Translations under genes and position numbers: made by a program
Assembly: GCA_963845755.1 (NCBI GenBank)
Contig: CAWJTV010000019.1
Coordinates: forward strand, 352,001-416,000
Reading direction: 5' to 3'
DNA: 64,000 nt
DNA from: an uncultured Planctomycetota bacterium
GTDB taxonomy: Bacteria > Planctomycetota > Planctomycetia > Isosphaerales > Isosphaeraceae
Notes under the pieces: model-generated
Databases searched by the model: none
What the model saw: only the letters and a program-made list of their open reading frames with translations
Told to the model about the DNA's origin: nothing
In this document: positions 43,600 through 52,040 of the stretch, piece after piece
How positions within the stretch are numbered: position 1 is the first letter of the stretch
Layout: every line of letters begins with the position of its first letter

Positions 43600-44028
43600 T
43601 CAGGCCCGTTCCCGCTTTTGGACCGAGCCCAGGATGCCCGCGATGGTCGTCTTGGCGAGCTGCTCGTCCATCCGCCGCTCGACCTCGCCATAGACCGCTG
43701 TAAGGATGCCCTGGATGTTCCGACCCACCGGGCAGAGCGGGTTGGGCTCGCTCCGGTGCAGGGCAATCGTCTCGCCCTGCGGCTCGACCGCCCGGAGCAC
43801 ATTCAGGAGCGTGATTCGCCCGGCGGGGACCTTGAGCCGCCAGCCGCCGCCGATCCCGCCTTGGGACTCGACGATCCCGGCCTCGCGGAGGCGGCCGAGC
43901 AGGCGGCGGATGACCACGGGATTCGTGTTGACGCTCCCGGCGATGTACTCCGAGGTCTGGGCCTGGTCCGGCGTCAATGCGAGCAGGGTCAGGATGTGGA
44001 CGCCGACGGTGAGCTTGGAACTGAGCAT
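43600..44028 (-). CDS. Rrf2-family regulator (YwnA/HypR-like, single Cys)
   Basis: TSEYIAGSVNTNPVVIRRLLGRL, GGWRL, ITLLNVLRAVE, PNPLCPVG. Confidence 0.9.
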   Translation of the reverse strand: MLSSKLTVGVHILTLLALTPDQAQTSEYIAGSVNTNPVVIRRLLGRLREAGIVESQGGIGGGWRLKVPAGRITLLNVLRAVEPQGETIALHRSEPNPLCPVGRNIQGILTAVYGEVERRMDEQLAKTTIAGILGSVQKRERA

Positions 44029-44040
44029 CGCCTCTCCGAT

Positions 44041-44061
44041 TCGCAACCATAATAGTTACGA
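44041..44061. promoter_or_regulatory. Palindromic candidate Rrf2 operator
   Basis: TCGCAAC-CATAATA-GTTACGA, an AT-rich palindrome 13 nt upstream of the Rrf2 start. Confidence 0.6.
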
Positions 44062-44349: not shown

Positions 44350-45486
44350 TCAGGTGTGGCAGACCCGTCGATAGATCGCCTCGTAGCCGGGGACGATGAC
44401 GTCGGCCGAGAAGCGGTCCCTCGCGCGGCGCCGCGCCGCCGCGCCCATCGCGGCGCGGCGGGTCGGGTCGGCGATCAGGGCCTCCACGGCCCGGGCGAGT
44501 CCGGCCGCGTCGCCGGGGGGTACGAGGAGGCCCGAGATGCCGTCCTCCACCACCTCGGGGATGCCGCCGACGCGCGTCGCGACGCTCGGGCAGCCGAAGC
44601 ACATCGCCTCGAGGATGCTCAGGCAGAAGCTCTCGGAATCGGACGCGAACAGCCCCAGGTCGGCCGCCTGCAGGTACTCCTCGATATCGTGGACGCGCTC
44701 CAGCACGACCACCCGGCCCTCGAGGCCGAGCCGCCGGACATCGTCGGCGAACGGCGCGAATCCCTCACCGGCGAGGATCACCAGGCGGAAGGATTCGCGC
44801 AGGCGCACCCGCGCGGCGGCCTCGAGCAGCAGGTCGACCCGCTTGACCGGGCGGAGGTTCGAGCTGTGCAGCACGACCGCCTCGTCCATCACGCCGAGCT
44901 CCTGCCGCACCTCGTCGCGCGTCCGGCGCGTCCGGCGCGGCTCGAAGTAGTTGTGCACCAAATCGATCGGCCGGTCGAAGCCGAGCAGGCGACGGGTCTC
45001 GTCGCGGAGGTACTCCGACACGACCGTGACGGCGTCGGAACACTCCAGGGCGTGGCGGATCGCCGGGCCGTAGCCCGGGTCGCGGCCGAGCAGGGTGGTG
45101 TCGGTCCCGTGCAGCGTGGCGACGACTTTCGGGCGCAGCTCGGGCGGCAGCATCGATCGCGCGAGGATGGCGGCCGTCGCGTGCGGCACGGCGTAGTGGA
45201 CGTGCAGCACGTCGAGCCGATGCTCGCGGCTCACCTCGGCCATCTTCACGGAGAGGGGCAGGGTGTAGTCGGGGTACTTGAACAGGCCGTAGGCGTTGAT
45301 GCCCACCGGGTGGTAGCGGACGCGGGGCGCGTCCGGCGGGAGCCGGAAGGGCCGCTCGTAGCTGATGAAGTGCACGTCGTGCCCGCGGCGGGCGAGGTCG
45401 ACACCCAGGGACGACGCGAGGATGCCGCTCCCCCCCACCGAGGGGTAGCAGGTGATGCCGATCCGGAGTGGGCGGTCACAGCTCAT
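44350..45486 (-). CDS. bshA: N-acetyl-alpha-D-glucosaminyl L-malate synthase (GT4)
   Basis: IGITCYPSVGGSG, LFKYPDY, LHVHYAVPHA, TLHGTD, HSSNLRPVKRV, ESFCLSILEAM. Confidence 0.92.
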   Translation of the reverse strand: MSCDRPLRIGITCYPSVGGSGILASSLGVDLARRGHDVHFISYERPFRLPPDAPRVRYHPVGINAYGLFKYPDYTLPLSVKMAEVSREHRLDVLHVHYAVPHATAAILARSMLPPELRPKVVATLHGTDTTLLGRDPGYGPAIRHALECSDAVTVVSEYLRDETRRLLGFDRPIDLVHNYFEPRRTRRTRDEVRQELGVMDEAVVLHSSNLRPVKRVDLLLEAAARVRLRESFRLVILAGEGFAPFADDVRRLGLEGRVVVLERVHDIEEYLQAADLGLFASDSESFCLSILEAMCFGCPSVATRVGGIPEVVEDGISGLLVPPGDAAGLARAVEALIADPTRRAAMGAAARRRARDRFSADVIVPGYEAIYRRVCHT

Positions 45487-45487
45487 G

Positions 45488-46216
45488 TTAGAACCGGCTC
45501 GCGTTGCGGCCCAGCCGCGCCAGGGAGTCAACGACGGGCGGGTCGTTGGGGTAGAGGGCGATGGCGTGGCCGACGCCGGCCCGCAGGCCGTTGACCCGGG
45601 CGCGTGTCAGTTGCATCTCGACATAGGCGCGGGCCTTCACCTGCGTCGCGTGCGCCTGCATCGCGGCGGTCCAGGCGGCCAGGATCTCCGGGGCCGAGAC
45701 GTCGACGAGGACCGGCGAGACGTCGCGGGGCTCGGCCCCCGGCGACGTCGCGTAGAAGAAGAGCTGCTCGATCGCGTGCGGGGCGAGTCCGCGCAGCTCG
45801 GCGACGCCGCCGTAACGGGCGAGCCGGGTCGCGTCGCGCACGAGGCGGCCCAGCCGGACATGGTCGGGGTGCTGGTTCTCGACCGGCGTCGGGGCCAGGA
45901 CGGTGGCCGGACGCAGCCGTCGGATCACGCCGGCCAGGCGGATCGCGTGCGCGGCCTTCTCCTCGAGGTGGGCATCGCCGTCGAGCTCGATCAGCTCCAA
46001 GGACGCGCCGAGCGCTCGCGCGCCGGCCCGGCACTCCTCCAGTCGTTCCTCGGGCGTGCCGTGGCTGGCCGACTCGCCGCGCGAGCAGACGACCAGGTGC
46101 GCAGGGCGCCCGGCGCGGGACTCGAGGGCCACGACGCCGCCGCAGCCGAACTCGACGTCGTCGGGATGACAACCGAACGCCAGCAAGGGCGCCGGCTCAG
46201 GTCGGGGGTTCGACAT
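45488..46216 (-). CDS. bshB1: GlcNAc-malate deacetylase, PIG-L family
   Basis: HPDDVEFGCGG, SRGESASHGT, HPDH; adjacent to bshA. Confidence 0.85.
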   Translation of the reverse strand: MSNPRPEPAPLLAFGCHPDDVEFGCGGVVALESRAGRPAHLVVCSRGESASHGTPEERLEECRAGARALGASLELIELDGDAHLEEKAAHAIRLAGVIRRLRPATVLAPTPVENQHPDHVRLGRLVRDATRLARYGGVAELRGLAPHAIEQLFFYATSPGAEPRDVSPVLVDVSAPEILAAWTAAMQAHATQVKARAYVEMQLTRARVNGLRAGVGHAIALYPNDPPVVDSLARLGRNASRF

Positions 46217-46982
46217 AGGCTTCATCAGGTCGCTCGATCAGGTCGCGGACGATATAGGTGATCTCGGGCGCATCATCCTTCCGGAGGTAATCCTGCTCGC
46301 TGGCCCCCGACACGTAGTGGGTGCACCGGATCACCGATTGCATCCAGCGCAGCCGGGTGTCGCGCGTCGGGCTGATCTGCTCGCGGGTGTACGCCGCGTC
46401 GGGGAGGTCCACGTACTGGTCGCCCCCCTTGTAAAGCCTGGGACGGCCCTCGAGCAGCCGGGCCCGCACGACTTCGCCCTCGTATGGCACGTCAACGTAG
46501 TAGTCTTCCACGTCGCACGCCGCCCGGCGGAAGGCCGGGTCGCTCGAGCGGGCGACGCGGATGCCGTCAAGCAGGCCCATGTGTCGGTACATCTCCAGGC
46601 AGAAATCGGCGACGGTCTCGGCCTCGACCGCGCGGAACGTCTCGGCCCACTCGGGGCCGACGTAGGGGCGGATCTGGTCGGCGGTGCGGGCCTGCCAGTC
46701 GGCGCGGACCCGCTTGAGGTACAGCGGCGAGAACTTCCGCTGCACCTGGTTGTCGAAGGCGAAGTTGAGCTGGAGCGGCTCGCCCGTCTTGCGGTGGCGC
46801 AGGGTCGTGCGGGTCTCGCGGAAGTCGTGGTCGCTATCGTGGCAGAAGAAGACGACCTCGCCGCCGATCTCCGACTGCAGCCGCCGCGCCGTGGCGATCT
46901 TGGCGTAGAGATAGCGCCGGGGGAAGAAGCCGCACGGCTGCTGGCCGAAGCAGATGACGGGGGTGGTCGCGGTCGCGGTCAT
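46197..46982 (-). CDS. Half-size BshC-like protein (putative cysteine-adding enzyme)
   Basis: GQQP...YAKIATA...VVFFCHDSDHDFRE and RWMQ...YVSGASEQDY echo the BshC motifs GQQ, DHDxxE and RPxxQ..YxxGPGExxY; located in a bsh operon. Confidence 0.65.
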   Translation of the reverse strand: MTATATTPVICFGQQPCGFFPRRYLYAKIATARRLQSEIGGEVVFFCHDSDHDFRETRTTLRHRKTGEPLQLNFAFDNQVQRKFSPLYLKRVRADWQARTADQIRPYVGPEWAETFRAVEAETVADFCLEMYRHMGLLDGIRVARSSDPAFRRAACDVEDYYVDVPYEGEVVRARLLEGRPRLYKGGDQYVDLPDAAYTREQISPTRDTRLRWMQSVIRCTHYVSGASEQDYLRKDDAPEITYIVRDLIERPDEAYVEPPT

Positions 46983-48694
46983 GGGTTCGCAGGCGCCTCC
47001 TCAGGCGAAGGGCCGGGGCCTAGCGCGGCCTGGAGTACCAGGCTGAAGCCGACGCACGCCGCGCAGCCGATCAGATTGTACCAGAGGTAGCTGATATCCA
47101 GGCTGGCGAAGAGCGCGAACACCAGGAGCTGCGCCGCGATCGCCGCCCAGAAGACGGCGGTCCCCCGCACCCGCCGCAGGAAGAACGCCACGAGGAACAG
47201 GCCGAGGACCACGCCGTAGAAGATCGAAGCCACGATGTTCACCGCCTGGATCAGGTTCTCCGCCAGGCTGGCGAAGAGCGCGAAGCCGACCGCGACCGCA
47301 CCCCACATCACCGTGAACCACCGCGTGGCGGTCACGTGGTGCGCGTCATCGGCCTGTCGCGCCACGAGGAGCCGATAGAAATCGACCGTCGTCGTCGTCG
47401 CCAGCGCGTTCAGCTCGGCGGCCTTCGACGAGAGCGTGGCGCCGAAGAACGCGGCGATCAGCAGACCGATCATCCCGTGGGGGAGGTGGCCGAGGATGAA
47501 CGTGATGAACACGTAATCCGTGTCCGGGGATTTCGCCCGGGCGCTCAGCGATTCGAGGGCCGCCTTCGCCTCGGCCCGGACGGCCTGGCTCCGGTCCTGG
47601 GCGGCCAGGGCTCGCGACCGCGCCCCGGCCACGGCCGAGGGGTCGCCGTACTCCCGGGCGGAGAGCCAGTCCTCGACGGCGCACCGCTTCTCGGCGTGGA
47701 GCTCGCCGTACCGCCGCTCCAGATCCCGCAGGCGACCGTCGGGGTCGCGCTCCAGTCCACGCTCCCACACGACCGGGTTGAAGTACACGGGCGGCGGCTC
47801 GAACTGGTAGAAGACGAACACCATCGTCCCCAGCAGCAGGATGAAGAATTGCATGGGGATCTTGACCACGGCGTTGAACATCAGGCCCAGCCGGCTCTCG
47901 CGGAGCGATGTTCCCGAGAGGTAGCGCTGGACCTGCGACTGGTCGGTGCCGAAGTACGACAGCGCGAGGAAGAAGCCCCCGAGCAGCCCCGACCAGAACG
48001 TGTACCGTCGGCTCGGATCGACCGAGAAGTCGACCCCGTTGAGCTTGCGGAAGCCGCCCGCCAGGGCCAGGGCGTCGTCGAGCCCCACCCCAGGCGGCAT
48101 CCGGCGCAGCAGGACGACGAAGGCCGCGAACATCCCGCAGAAAATCACGCCGAGCTGGTACTTCTGCGTCACGTTCACCGCCTGGCTTCCGCCCGCGGCC
48201 GTGTAGGCGATCACGACCAGCCCCGTGAGCAGGATCGTGGCGTCGGTGCGCCAGTGCAGCACGGTCGAGAGGATGATCGCGGGCGCGTAGACGGTGATCC
48301 CCGCCTGAAGGCCGCGCTGGAGGAGGAACAACGCCGCGCCCAGCAGCCGGGTCTTCGCGTCGAACCGGCGGCCGAGGTACTCGTACGCCGTGTACACGTT
48401 GAGGCGACGGTACATTGGCAAGAACACCGCCGCGATGAGGATGAGCGCGAGCGGGGCGCCGAAGTAGTTCTGGACGAACCCCAGGCCGTCCTGGTACCCC
48501 TGGCCGGGCATCGAGAGGAACGTGACCGCGCTGGCCTGGGTCGCCATCACCGAGAGGCCGATGGCGGCCCAACCCGTGCGCCGGTCGCCCTTCAAGTAGT
48601 AGCTCAGCTCCTGTCGCCCACGCGTCTGCCAAACGCCATAGACTGCGATCCCGACCATGCTCCCGACCAGCACCAGGAAGTCGAGCAGATTCAT
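46979..48694 (-). CDS. Sodium:solute symporter (SSS family)
   Basis: LSVMATQASAVTFLS, TAYEYLGRRFD, YFGTDQSQVQRYL, many TM helices. Confidence 0.92.
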   Translation of the reverse strand: MNLLDFLVLVGSMVGIAVYGVWQTRGRQELSYYLKGDRRTGWAAIGLSVMATQASAVTFLSMPGQGYQDGLGFVQNYFGAPLALILIAAVFLPMYRRLNVYTAYEYLGRRFDAKTRLLGAALFLLQRGLQAGITVYAPAIILSTVLHWRTDATILLTGLVVIAYTAAGGSQAVNVTQKYQLGVIFCGMFAAFVVLLRRMPPGVGLDDALALAGGFRKLNGVDFSVDPSRRYTFWSGLLGGFFLALSYFGTDQSQVQRYLSGTSLRESRLGLMFNAVVKIPMQFFILLLGTMVFVFYQFEPPPVYFNPVVWERGLERDPDGRLRDLERRYGELHAEKRCAVEDWLSAREYGDPSAVAGARSRALAAQDRSQAVRAEAKAALESLSARAKSPDTDYVFITFILGHLPHGMIGLLIAAFFGATLSSKAAELNALATTTTVDFYRLLVARQADDAHHVTATRWFTVMWGAVAVGFALFASLAENLIQAVNIVASIFYGVVLGLFLVAFFLRRVRGTAVFWAAIAAQLLVFALFASLDISYLWYNLIGCAACVGFSLVLQAALGPGPSPEEAPANP

Positions 48695-48873
48695 GAAAAA
48701 CTCCGCTCGAGGACGACCAGGAGCACCACCCACGCGACGAGGCAGATGAGCACGACCGCATAGACGGCCGGCCAGGTGCGGGGCCACGGCAGTCCGGTCG
48801 CCCCGTCAAGCAGTTCGTCCGCAATGACGGGCGGGTGCGGCGGGCCGGCTCGATCGTCGTCGTGGATGGTCAT
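48691..48873 (-). CDS. Small single-TM membrane protein, probable SSS accessory subunit
   Basis: 60 aa with WPAVYAVVLICLVAWVVLLVVL; ATGA overlaps on both sides. Confidence 0.75.
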   Translation of the reverse strand: MTIHDDDRAGPPHPPVIADELLDGATGLPWPRTWPAVYAVVLICLVAWVVLLVVLERSFS

Positions 48874-51373
48874 TTGCCGAGCGAGACCAGGTTTGCGAAG
48901 AGCCGATAGGCCCCCGGGACCCCGGCGGGGAGTTGCCGGAAGAACACGAGTCCCGTGTAGACGAAGTGGCCTCGGCCGTACTTCGCCACGAGCAGGCCCC
49001 CCTTCAGTGGCGTTTCGCCCGGGTCGCCCGACGCCAGGATCGGCGTGAAATGCGAGTCCCATTGCGTCGGGAAGTAGATGCCGCGCTCCTGCACCCAGCC
49101 TTCCATGTCGGCCTCGCCGATCTTGTTGGGCGTCGTGAGCACGGGGTGGTCGGGCGCGAGGAAAGTCACCGGTGCGTTCTCGTCGGTGACGCGGGCGTCG
49201 GACAGCCGCAGGTCGTAGGGGGCGAGGCGGTTCGTCCGGAGCCCGTTCGGCCGGTTGTACTGGGCGACGACCGTCCCGCCCCCCTCGACGTAGGCGAAGA
49301 GCGCCGGCAGGTGGGCGGCGAGGTCGTCGCGCACGTTATAGGCGCGGACGCCGATTACCACGGCGTCGAGGCCGGCGAGCTTCTCGGCAGTCAGGTCCGT
49401 GCCGGCGAGCCGTGTGACCTCGTAGCCCATCTCCTCGAGGCCCTCGGCCACGCTGTCGCCGGCGCCGGGGATGTAGCCGACGCGACGCCCCTTGATCGTG
49501 AGGTCGAGGGTCAAGACCTTCAGGCGCGGGGGGCTGGAGCAACTGCACGGGGATATGCTCGTGCTTGATCACGACCCGACCGGAGTTCCAGGTCCGGTCG
49601 CCCATGCGGGCCTCGGCCGTGATGGCGGCCGTAGCCGATCCGGGCGGGGCCTTGACGGTGAACGACAACCGCGCACGGTCGCCGGCCGTCGCCAGCCGGA
49701 ACGGCTGCGACGCGGGGGTGACCGTCCACCCGGCCGGCGCACGGAGGGCGAGCGTGCCCGCCGCGCCGTCGCGCGCGGCCGTAACTTCGACGTCGACCGG
49801 GCGGCTCGGCCCCCGGGGCGAAGAGCCGCACCTGGGAGAGAGGCCGCAGGGCCACCGGCGCGATCACGTCGAGCCGCCGGGCCGGCTGGCCCTGCTCGGC
49901 GGCCTGCACGGGTACGTCAGCGATCTCCAGGGTCTGGCCGCCGACCTGGAATCGGTGCTCGACCGGGAAGGCCGTCGGGTTCTCGGGTTGCCCGATCAGA
50001 GCGGGATTGACCTTGAAGAGGCCGACGGAGTGCTCCTCGCGCAGCCAGTACGGTTGGCCGAGCGGGGCATCGGACGGCAGCGTCTGGTCCACGTCGCGGC
50101 TGGCGGGCCGCCCGGCCGTCAGGTCGATCGGCTGGTCCACCGACCGACCCGTGAGCGGGTAGGAGACGGACAACCAGCGGACGGGGACGCCGGCCGCGAC
50201 CGTCGCCGAGTGCCGCAGCTTCAATACCTCGCCCGGCACGACTTCGGCGCGGGGAACGGTCGTCTCGACCACGAGCCCGAGGCAGCCCTGGATTGCCCGG
50301 TCGAGCTGGCGGCGCTTCTCGGCCACGAGGGGGTCGGCGGGGAGCGAGGCGAGCCGCTCTCGGATCGCCAGCAGGCGGGGCACGATCGCGGCGGGGGCCT
50401 TCGCGATCGAACTTCGCCACCGCCTCGTGGGCCAGCTTCGCGACCTCAGGCCCCGCCCGGGCAAGCGGGCCCAGGTCGTGTTGACGCCGTCCATGATGTC
50501 TTTCGTCGCCGGCTCGCCGCCCAGGAGCGTAAACGAGTCGGTGCGTGGGCCGCTCCCCCCGCGCCCGCCGAAGTTGCCGAAGCCCTGACTTTTGTGCATC
50601 GAACGGCTGCGCCCGGCGATCGTGCCGAGCGGCTCGTGGGTGACCGGGTCGTCGCCGCCGATCTCGACGCGGAGCCCGCCGGCACCGCCGCCACCCCGGC
50701 CGAATCCGCCGCTGTTCTGGAGGATCCGTTTGGGCTGCCAGGCGGCCAGCTCGCCGATTTGTTCGGGGAACGCCCCGGGGTCGCCCGCGAGCCGGAAGGC
50801 CTCGACGGCCAGGATGGCGGACGCCGTGTGGTGGCCGTGGCCGCCCCCCTGGGGCGAGAAGCGGGTGACGATCACGTCGGGCCGGAACGCGCGGATCACC
50901 CGCACGATGTCGGAGACGACGGCCTTCCGATCCCAGATCCGGAGCGTCTCGGCGGGGTTCTTCGAGAAGCCGAAGTCGATGGCGCGGGTGAAGAACTGCC
51001 GGCCGCCGTCGAGGCGGCGGGCGGCGAGGAGCTCCTGGGTGCGGATCACCCCCAGCTCCTCGAAAAACTCGGGGCCGATGACGTTCTGACCGCCGTCGCC
51101 CCGCGTGAGCGACAGATAGGCCGTGCGGTAGCCGCGGCCGCGCGCGAGGTAGGCGATGAGCTGGGTGTTCTCGTCGTCGGGGTGCGCGGCCACGTGCAGG
51201 ACGCTCCCCAGCTCGCGGAACCCGCGCAGCTCACGTAACGTGTCCTGGGCCGTCATCGGCTCCGCGGCACGGCCGCCGGAGATCGGCCCGGTCAGCAGGG
51301 CCCCCGCCAGGAAGAGTGGGACGAGCCGAGCGGCGGGCCGATTCGACCCGCGGGAGCGTCGTGGTGCGGACAT
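48870..51373 (-). CDS. Large secreted PIG-L/LmbE-family deacetylase with Ig-like and GATase-like C-terminal domains (several frameshifts)
   Basis: Signal-like N-terminus, AAHPDDEN, TRGDGGQN, DFGFSK, HGHH, HKSQGFG; C-terminal GYIPGAGD...WVQERGIYF...GAYRLFANL. Confidence 0.85.
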
Positions 51374-51458: not shown

Positions 51459-52040
51459 TCACTTCTTCACGGTAAACGGGATCGAGTACTGGGTGCTCTC
51501 CCACATCATCTTGAGCAGGCCCCCGCCGGCCTCCGGCTCGATCGCCATCGTGAACTGGTCGACCGTCTTGTCGAGGGTCAACTTCTTCAGATCCACACGC
51601 GCCAGCTCGTTGGCCTTCTCCGAGTCCTCCTTGTAGGGGATGCCCCACTGGCCGGTCTTCTTGTTGATGACGAGTTTGGCGGTACCGTCCTCGTTGGGCA
51701 CGGTGAACAGCGAATACGTGCCGGGGGCGAGCGAGTAGCCGCCGAGCTCGATCGGCTGCGCGGTCGTGAGCAGGGTCGCCTCGTCGGCGCCCGTGCGCCA
51801 GACCTTGCCGTAGGGGACCAACCCGCCCCAGATCTTGCGGGCCTCGGTGGTCCCGGGTTTCGTGGTGTAGGGGCGCCCGTAGACGAGCTTCATCTCGTCG
51901 CCGTCGATCTTGGCCGTGATCGTCTCGTGCGGGCTGATGCGCTGACGCTGCTTCTTCTTGGCGGCCTGGGCCATCGCGGGCGTCGCGGTGACGAGCGCCG
52001 CCGCGACGACGAGGGCGAGTGCGATTCCGAGCTTCCTCAT
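51459..52040 (-). CDS. DUF2911 family exported protein
   Basis: Signal peptide, RISP, YGRP, IWGGLVPYGKVWRTGADEAT, GTYSLFTVP, QWG. Confidence 0.88.
   Translation of the reverse strand: MRKLGIALALVVAAALVTATPAMAQAAKKKQRQRISPHETITAKIDGDEMKLVYGRPYTTKPGTTEARKIWGGLVPYGKVWRTGADEATLLTTAQPIELGGYSLAPGTYSLFTVPNEDGTAKLVINKKTGQWGIPYKEDSEKANELARVDLKKLTLDKTVDQFTMAIEPEAGGGLLKMMWESTQYSIPFTVKK

Follow-up and report, generated by a model that had tools for sequence, protein, structure and literature searches.

The window analysed here is a stretch of 64,000 nucleotides (nt) from an uncultured planctomycete of the family Isosphaeraceae (contig CAWJTV010000019.1 of assembly GCA_963845755.1), and the subject is one gene within it, an open reading frame (ORF) of 261 amino acids (aa) that is called X261 below. 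X261 lies between a transporter gene and two genes of bacillithiol type, and an earlier note on this DNA had proposed that it encodes a minimal version of BshC, the protein to which the cysteine-adding step of bacillithiol synthesis is ascribed. Structural and profile comparisons now show X261 to be related to BshC by homology and shortened by domain loss, and it is probably the catalytic core of a BshC-type enzyme standing on its own. The genes concerned are as follows.

44350..45531, minus strand: BshA, N-acetylglucosaminyl-L-malate synthase, a GT4 glycosyltransferase (TIGR03999, 394.7 bits; cut-off 273.7)
45488..46225, minus strand: PIG-L/LmbE deacetylase, BshB-like (PF02585, 69.7 bits; TIGR04001 for BshB1, 117.9 bits; cut-off 182.5)
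46197..46982, minus strand: X261, putative stand-alone homologue of the Rossmann-like catalytic core of BshC (ORF, predicted structure and hhalign)
46979..48787, minus strand: transporter of the sodium:solute symporter family, 602 aa (PF00474, 110.8 bits; TIGR00813, 219.7 bits)
48870..51373, minus strand: large secreted PIG-L-domain protein, here split over three frames (tblastn with the protein of locus L068)
51459..52040, minus strand: DUF2911 protein, N-terminus resembling a signal peptide; the conserved cluster starts with this gene (PF11138, 129.3 bits)

The start codon of X261 (ATG, 46982-46980) and the TGA that closes the upstream symporter gene (46979-48787) overlap in the sequence ATGA. 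At the other end, X261 with its own TGA stop (46199-46197) reaches 29 nt into the following ORF (45488-46225, with its ATG at 46225). Neither the ORF list nor the DNA reveals an internal stop or frameshift. The protein contains the motifs FGQQPCGFFP, YAK, VVFFCHDSDHDFRET and RLRWMQSVIRCTHYVSGASEQDY, and it ends 29 residues past the Y of YVSGASEQDY. The earlier note had described the intact frame, the motifs and the overlaps with both neighbours correctly, and it had seen the short tail, which it put at about 25 residues. It had also called the two downstream genes clear copies of bshB and bshA; the second label holds (394.7 bits), and the first is in doubt, since the deacetylase scores below the BshB1 cut-off (117.9 against 182.5 bits).

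An AlphaFold2 model of X261, built from a cleaned alignment of 20 sequences of the X261 family (A2), has a mean pLDDT of 93.9 and a pTM of 0.91. When this model was compared with the PDB using Foldseek, the top match was BshC of B. subtilis (4wbd; E 1.4e-10, prob 1.00, TMq 0.65, 16% identity), followed by a class I lysyl-tRNA synthetase (E 4.6e-4) and then by other class I synthetases. VIA-align pairs 243 of the 261 residues with 4wbd (Z 20.4, root-mean-square deviation 3.1), and its remaining matches are 1irx at Z 14.9 and others at 9.9 or less. The structural comparison that the earlier note had recommended thus comes out on the side of BshC.

The profiles of the two families could also be aligned directly. 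For this purpose, canonical BshC was represented by 11 proteins (A3), taken from loci of the window's own phylum that a TIGR03998 search had identified, and hhalign of A2 against A3 gave a probability of 94.3% (E 9.7e-8, 221 columns), with residues 7-235 of X261 placed on 84-361 of BshC. In this alignment G13-Q14-Q15 of X261 is paired with the invariant GQQ of BshC, and A32 with the invariant A113; D51-H52-D53 and E56 fall on D134-H135-D136 and E139 (DHDxxE), S204-P205 and R210 on FSP and R336 (FSP..R), and V224, G226, E229 and Y232 on V350, G352, E355 and Y358 (YVxGxxExxY; YVAGPxExAY in canonical BshC). In the predicted fold, GQQ would follow strand 1, DHDxxE strand 2 and YVxGxxExxY the last-but-one strand. 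The motifs also differ: P353 of BshC is replaced by Ala or Ser in the X261 family, and W129 by Phe. In the ESM Atlas, 12 clusters with PF10079 (score 0.91) stand directly behind X261's own clusters.

The remainder of BshC is missing from X261, which lacks both the first ~80 residues and the C-terminal coiled-coil dimerisation domain (PF24850). The idea of a minimal BshC without the coiled coil is therefore borne out for the core, by the hhalign probability of 94.3% and by the motifs in their predicted columns; that the N-terminal ~80 residues are gone as well had not been foreseen. No separate PF24850 domain was found in the window's genome (best E 0.72), and a coiled coil supplied in trans was rejected on that search.

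X261 belongs to a widespread and previously undescribed family whose members are related to BshC and half its size. The family has no name in Pfam or NCBIfam, and X261 gives zero matches against either collection, even at E<=10. Of 7771 candidates from a word-indexed search, 6766 are relatives at E<=0.001. The best 120 of these measure 243-284 aa, are without any Pfam domain and, where they are named at all, go by 'hypothetical protein'; the typical length in the family is ~258 aa. When 1.84 billion cluster representatives were searched exhaustively with phmmer, 243 proteins came back at E<=0.001, most of them fragmentary members of the X261 family, and the best 150 matches included no protein of ~540 aa. 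Longer forms number just six, all of them single-member fusions in which the neighbouring symporter or glycosyltransferase is joined on, and BshC domains occur in none of them. The length common to the relatives and the near absence of longer forms argue that the half size characterises the family as a whole and does not reflect truncation. Outside its six closest relatives (L009-L014), the window protein is 63-71% identical to its best 74 matches, whose source genomes bear the labels of Verrucomicrobiota and of several other phyla, a few more Planctomycetota among them. Judged from these comparisons, the family is under strong constraint. Residues C11, C128, C220 and H222 are conserved within it and have no counterpart in BshC; a zinc site for the cysteine thiol at these positions, like that of cysteinyl-tRNA synthetase (CysRS), was considered and set aside, as the strand positions are not obviously favourable.

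The gene neighbourhood was followed through a scan of species-representative genomes, which gave 598 pattern matches and at least 578 stretches encoding an X261 relative. Eighty loci were kept, to which the cluster counts below refer, and their gene order was read with tblastn using the window proteins. By their records they are mostly from Verrucomicrobiota, with others from Planctomycetota (Isosphaeraceae, Phycisphaerae, Pirellulales) and Obscuribacterales and single ones from Binatia, Acidoferrum and Xenobia. The X261 matches span 720-786 nt, and the neighbouring genes abut or overlap them. The conserved order is DUF2911, large secreted PIG-L protein, Na+/solute symporter, X261, deacetylase and BshA, and all six genes are present in 54 loci. 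The symporter gene lies directly upstream of X261 in 79 of the 80; L039 is without the cluster's upstream genes. A BshB-like deacetylase follows X261 in 77 loci, its match overlapping that of X261 in 57 of them; two of the three misses are at locus ends, and L059 has no deacetylase. BshA is found in 74 loci, and all six misses are at locus ends. Where symporter, X261, deacetylase and BshA are all present, they stand in that order on one strand in 70 of 72 cases, and the BshA gene of L074 and L075 is shifted by 2.4 and 6.6 kb, respectively. The DUF2911 gene is upstream of the PIG-L gene in 61 loci; among the 19 misses, 16 have less than 5 kb of upstream flank, and L039, L040 and L071 have 5.8-8 kb.

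The synteny with bshA and bshB that the earlier note had suggested checking is thus general in the family. Its description of a complete bacillithiol-type operon was right as to the bsh-type gene order and left out three further conserved genes that lie beyond it. The canonical operon in genome G429 consists of a methyltransferase gene, bshC, bshB1 (207.3 bits, above the cut-off) and bshA, and the comparison of gene orders places X261 in the position of bshC. The first gene of that operon (L102, 723-1481), directly before bshC-bshB1-bshA, encodes a 252-aa protein resembling S-adenosylmethionine-dependent methyltransferases, a possible N-methyl-bacillithiol synthase.

The Opitutaceae chromosome L068 encodes the large PIG-L protein, with its PIG-L and NEW3 domains, in a single ORF of 843 aa, and both this protein and the DUF2911 protein have N-termini that look by eye like signal peptides. 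In the window, tblastn with the L068 protein traces the gene through 51310-49808 (frame -1), 49806-49525 (frame -2) and 49526-48873 (frame -3), the reading frame being interrupted near 49806 and again near 49525; L009, the nearest relative, has the gene in one frame throughout. One base is missing at 49803 in short-read contigs from two soil runs, so that an assembly error or a strain-specific difference may account for at least the first interruption. On the other side of the cluster, 300 nt downstream of bshA, lies a gene for an Rrf2-family regulator (43600-44046, minus strand; PF02082, 110 bits, with a weak HypR-like match), which accompanies the cluster solely in the two closest loci, L009 and L010. 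In one metatranscriptome, X261 is covered by a single 150-nt contig at the start of the gene, with the rest without cover; the DUF2911 region has a contig depth of 48-78, far above the rest of the cluster, and contigs of other organisms may contribute to it.

The distribution of X261 was compared with that of canonical BshC. The window's genome (G000; 14.27 Mb, 49 contigs, 87.9% complete) has a single match at the BshA level, the one in the cluster, and searches with PF10079 and TIGR03998 found no canonical BshC in it (best E 0.27 to 3.7), which answers the earlier note's call to look for a full-length bshC elsewhere in the genome. None was found in nine further carrier genomes examined. A larger sample consisted of 251 genomes from the phylum of the Opitutaceae genome G355, in which BshA is over its cut-off in 17, X261 present in 15 and BshC in two (G429 and G606). 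The 17 genomes with BshA are exactly the 15 with X261 and no BshC plus the two with BshC and no X261, and neither protein occurs without BshA anywhere in the sample.

The situation in the window's own phylum is different. BshC is present in 157 of 301 sampled genomes at E<=1e-5 (68 over the cut-off), and X261 in one, G000 itself; the 16 genomes of the same class in that search gave no match to canonical BshC. Among 61 close relatives X261 occurs in five including G000, within the family in four of 36 other genomes, and it was not found in the same-genus genome G301 (87% complete). The cluster is commoner in genomes labelled Verrucomicrobiota than in the window's phylum. The high identity across phyla (63-71%) together with this patchiness makes the cluster look horizontally acquired in the window's phylum.

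How might X261 act? BshC is required for bacillithiol synthesis, and a bshC mutant accumulates glucosaminyl-malate (GlcN-malate), according to a 2018 review (PMC5790435). By the scheme favoured here, X261, BshA and the PIG-L deacetylase would be translated from one operon. BshA would join N-acetylglucosamine (GlcNAc) from UDP-GlcNAc to malate, giving GlcNAc-malate, and the deacetylase would convert this to GlcN-malate. X261 would then attach cysteine, in an activated form, to the free amine of GlcN-malate, so that the product would be bacillithiol or a very close relative. A cysteine-adding role equivalent to that of BshC, with bacillithiol or a near-identical thiol as the outcome, is probably the correct description of X261, although we infer the activity, the substrates and the product; what the analysis itself establishes is the homology to BshC, the loss of domains, the order of the genes, the mutual exclusion of X261 and BshC, and how large and how conserved the family is. 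A bolder extension, offered tentatively, treats the six genes as a self-contained and horizontally mobile module of a new type for a low-molecular-weight thiol, one with a minimal ligase and no cytoplasmic disulfide reductase, in which the secreted PIG-L amidase, the DUF2911 protein and the symporter might use or recycle the compound across the inner membrane.

A number of observations weigh against the assignment of X261 to the BshC step. The hidden Markov models (HMMs) for BshC, PF10079 and TIGR03998, miss X261 even at E<=10, so that the profile search advised by the earlier note failed to detect it. Phmmer with X261 against PDB sequences did not find BshC and produced only weak matches to NADPH-P450 reductase (E 0.01), and a profile of the X261 family against the PDB did not find it either (best E 0.24). 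The block conserved near the C-terminus of BshC (P498, Q503, E504, R505 and G517 in A3) has no counterpart in X261. X261 is a remote relative of BshC and, by the BshC family's own models, not a member. The other components are also imperfect matches to the bacillithiol pathway, in that the deacetylases of the window (117.9 bits) and of L068 (124.2 bits) fall short of the BshB1 level (cut-off 182.5), which that of G429 exceeds (207.3 bits). The bacillithiol disulfide reductase YpdA (TIGR04018) was not found at E<=1e-20 in the carriers G000, G355, G593 and G596, and YtxJ and BrxA/B were not found in G000. The symporter and the two secreted proteins of the X261 cluster are absent from the canonical operon of G429. 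The complementary distribution of X261 and BshC is not independent evidence, because X261, the BshB-like deacetylase and BshA travel as one cluster and relatives share that cluster. Within the window's family, two of seven BshA genomes (G323 and G331) contain neither X261 nor BshC, which argues that BshA does not strictly require either. Lastly, four of 15 X261 matches (G548, G467, G455 and G595) are reported with one in-frame stop, and the copy in G314 is split in two frames.

The alternative that survives best retains the fold and the pathway position and changes the product. X261 might attach another amino acid or an acyl group, or the aglycone might be something other than malate, in either case giving a bacillithiol analogue that is accessory, envelope-linked or consumable and not a recycled cytoplasmic redox buffer. 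Such a product would fit the divergence of all three enzymes, since X261 goes undetected by the BshC HMMs, the deacetylase does not reach the BshB1 cut-off, and the BshA proteins of the cluster score 381-406 bits against 451-461 in two canonical genomes. It would also fit the distribution of YpdA, which is missing from all four carriers tested and over its cut-off in both genomes with canonical BshC (G429 and G606); from the four carriers it follows that the product of the X261 cluster may not be classic bacillithiol. The three extra genes conserved with the cluster, the cysteine and histidine residues peculiar to X261 and the patchy spread of the cluster (one of 301 genomes in the phylum sample, four of 36 in the family, none in the same-genus genome) point in the same direction. 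On the other side, BshA is above the equivalog cut-off for GlcNAc-malate synthase, and most of the invariant positions of the BshC core are kept in X261. In addition, 16 of the 251 genomes encode the large PIG-L protein: all 15 with X261, and G606, which has canonical BshC. None of the 234 without BshA does. Its presence in G606 suggests that both types of cluster make a compound handled by the same enzyme family, and its confinement to genomes with BshA (16 of 17) makes it a candidate extracytoplasmic amidase related to bacillithiol. A different product is accordingly possible but rather unlikely.

In a further alternative, X261 has no ligase activity and serves as a binding or regulatory subunit, or it acts, together with the symporter and the secreted PIG-L amidase, as an enzyme in the uptake and breakdown of bacillithiol-type compounds that other bacteria release. 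The cluster does include a transporter and two secreted proteins and behaves as an accessory, horizontally moving module, and the fold is no proof of ligase chemistry, since BshC activity has never been reconstituted according to PMC5790435. However, the same operon encodes a biosynthetic GT4 enzyme at the BshA equivalog level and no glycoside hydrolase, the nearly invariant polar residues of X261 gather in the motifs aligned with BshC, as would be expected of a catalyst, and X261 replaces bshC position for position. A role other than ligation therefore seems improbable.

That the ORF is merely a truncated, collapsed or misassembled canonical bshC, which the earlier note had named as a way to be wrong and for which the two frameshifts in the adjacent large PIG-L gene offer some pretext by showing that the assembly is not error-free, can be dismissed with near certainty, given thousands of relatives of ~258 aa, the relatives encoded in at least 578 species-representative stretches, the six longer forms without BshC domains, an identity to BshC of 16%, and short-read contigs from related soil metagenomes in which there is no consistent indel in the X261 ORF (the sole case is a compensating +1/-1 pair in a single contig).

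The interpretation of X261 as the cysteine-adding enzyme bears on a long-standing difficulty with BshC itself. As of 2018, according to PMC5790435, nobody knew which reaction BshC catalyses or had reconstituted it in vitro, and it was suspected that a substrate, a cofactor or a protein partner was missing. The review adds that BshC dimerises via its coiled coil, with an exposed active site that may admit a partner protein. Full-text searches, with most subscription journals outside their coverage, found no later reconstitution of BshC. For biochemical and crystallographic work X261 is a simpler object than BshC, being a naturally occurring half-size form in which the conserved core residues remain and the dimerisation domain is gone, and it indicates which parts of BshC are dispensable for the role of the core. 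If X261 is active alone, it would be the minimal catalytic unit of BshC-type enzymes and could allow the reconstitution of cysteine addition and of its activated donor.

There are also consequences for annotation. Hiras et al. 2018 (PMC6282198) place Verrucomicrobia and Planctomycetes among lineages without a documented or predicted low-molecular-weight thiol; their orthologue search demanded similar lengths of query and subject, and a 2025 survey (PMC12719100) applied comparable rules of length and coverage. Surveys that demand a full-length BshC orthologue would miss every genome of the X261 family, that is, at least 578 species-representative stretches. Full-text searches with the same limits of journal coverage turned up no paper on a short BshC, nor one on bsh genes of Verrucomicrobia beyond PMC6282198, PMC12719100 and PMC5790435. 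A name and a testable function for an unnamed family of thousands would improve annotation. A separate observation concerns canonical BshC, which is common in the Planctomycetota sample (157 of 301 genomes at E<=1e-5), in contrast to the listing of Planctomycetes without a predicted low-molecular-weight thiol in PMC6282198. As for other thiols in the window's genome, gshB scores 55.7 bits, below its cut-off, and gshA of the E. coli type was not found in a search that did not extend to other glutamate-cysteine ligase families.

The two BshA genomes of the window's family that have neither X261 nor BshC show another arrangement. In G323 (L103, 4594-9333) and G331 (L104, 5056-9314), where BshA scores 425 and 394.6 bits, the gene that comes after those for a PIG-L deacetylase (227.6 bits to BshB1 in G323) and BshA encodes a PaaK-like adenylate-forming ligase of 438 and 433 aa, respectively. 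These ligases are 60% identical to each other, with matches to PDB 4r1l (E 5.6e-19) and to NF045666 (129 bits), and it is possible that they represent a third, unrelated solution for the step that adds the amino acid. In G331 a FemAB-like GNAT protein (PF13480) is encoded upstream as well.

Among known systems, the closest to X261 is BshC (YllA; 4wbd; TIGR03998, PF10079 plus PF24850). The two share the Rossmann-like core with GQQ, DHDxxE, FSP..R and YVxGxxExxY and the placement upstream of bshB-bshA, and they are mutually exclusive among the BshA genomes of the 251-genome sample. They differ in length (540 aa in 4wbd against 261) and in the N-terminal ~80 residues, coiled coil and C-terminal block, which only BshC has, whereas X261 has conserved cysteine and histidine residues of its own and travels with a symporter and two secreted proteins. 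Set against the canonical bacillithiol system as a whole (BshA, BshB1, BshC and YpdA/Bdr), the X261 cluster reaches the equivalog level for BshA and not that for BshB1, and YpdA was not found at E<=1e-20 in the four carrier genomes searched.

The class I aminoacyl-tRNA synthetases have the same class of fold (1irx at Z 14.9; TyrRS, GluRS, YadB and CysRS at Z 8-10, with CysRS structures at 8.7-8.8 in VIA-align), but they are a much weaker match than BshC. As judged by eye, X261 lacks their HIGH and KMSKS motifs, with GQQ at the place of HIGH, and it has no anticodon-binding domain. YadB/Glu-Q-RS (1nzj, 4a91) nonetheless offers a parallel, being a catalytic domain that stands alone, without the accessory domains of its larger relatives, as X261 appears to do. 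The parallel in function is MshC, the cysteine ligase of mycothiol synthesis, which is a full-size paralogue of CysRS that retains the synthetase motifs. The step that it catalyses is analogous to the one proposed for X261, in that a GT4 enzyme and a PIG-L deacetylase supply a deacetylated GlcN-aglycone, to which cysteine is then added.

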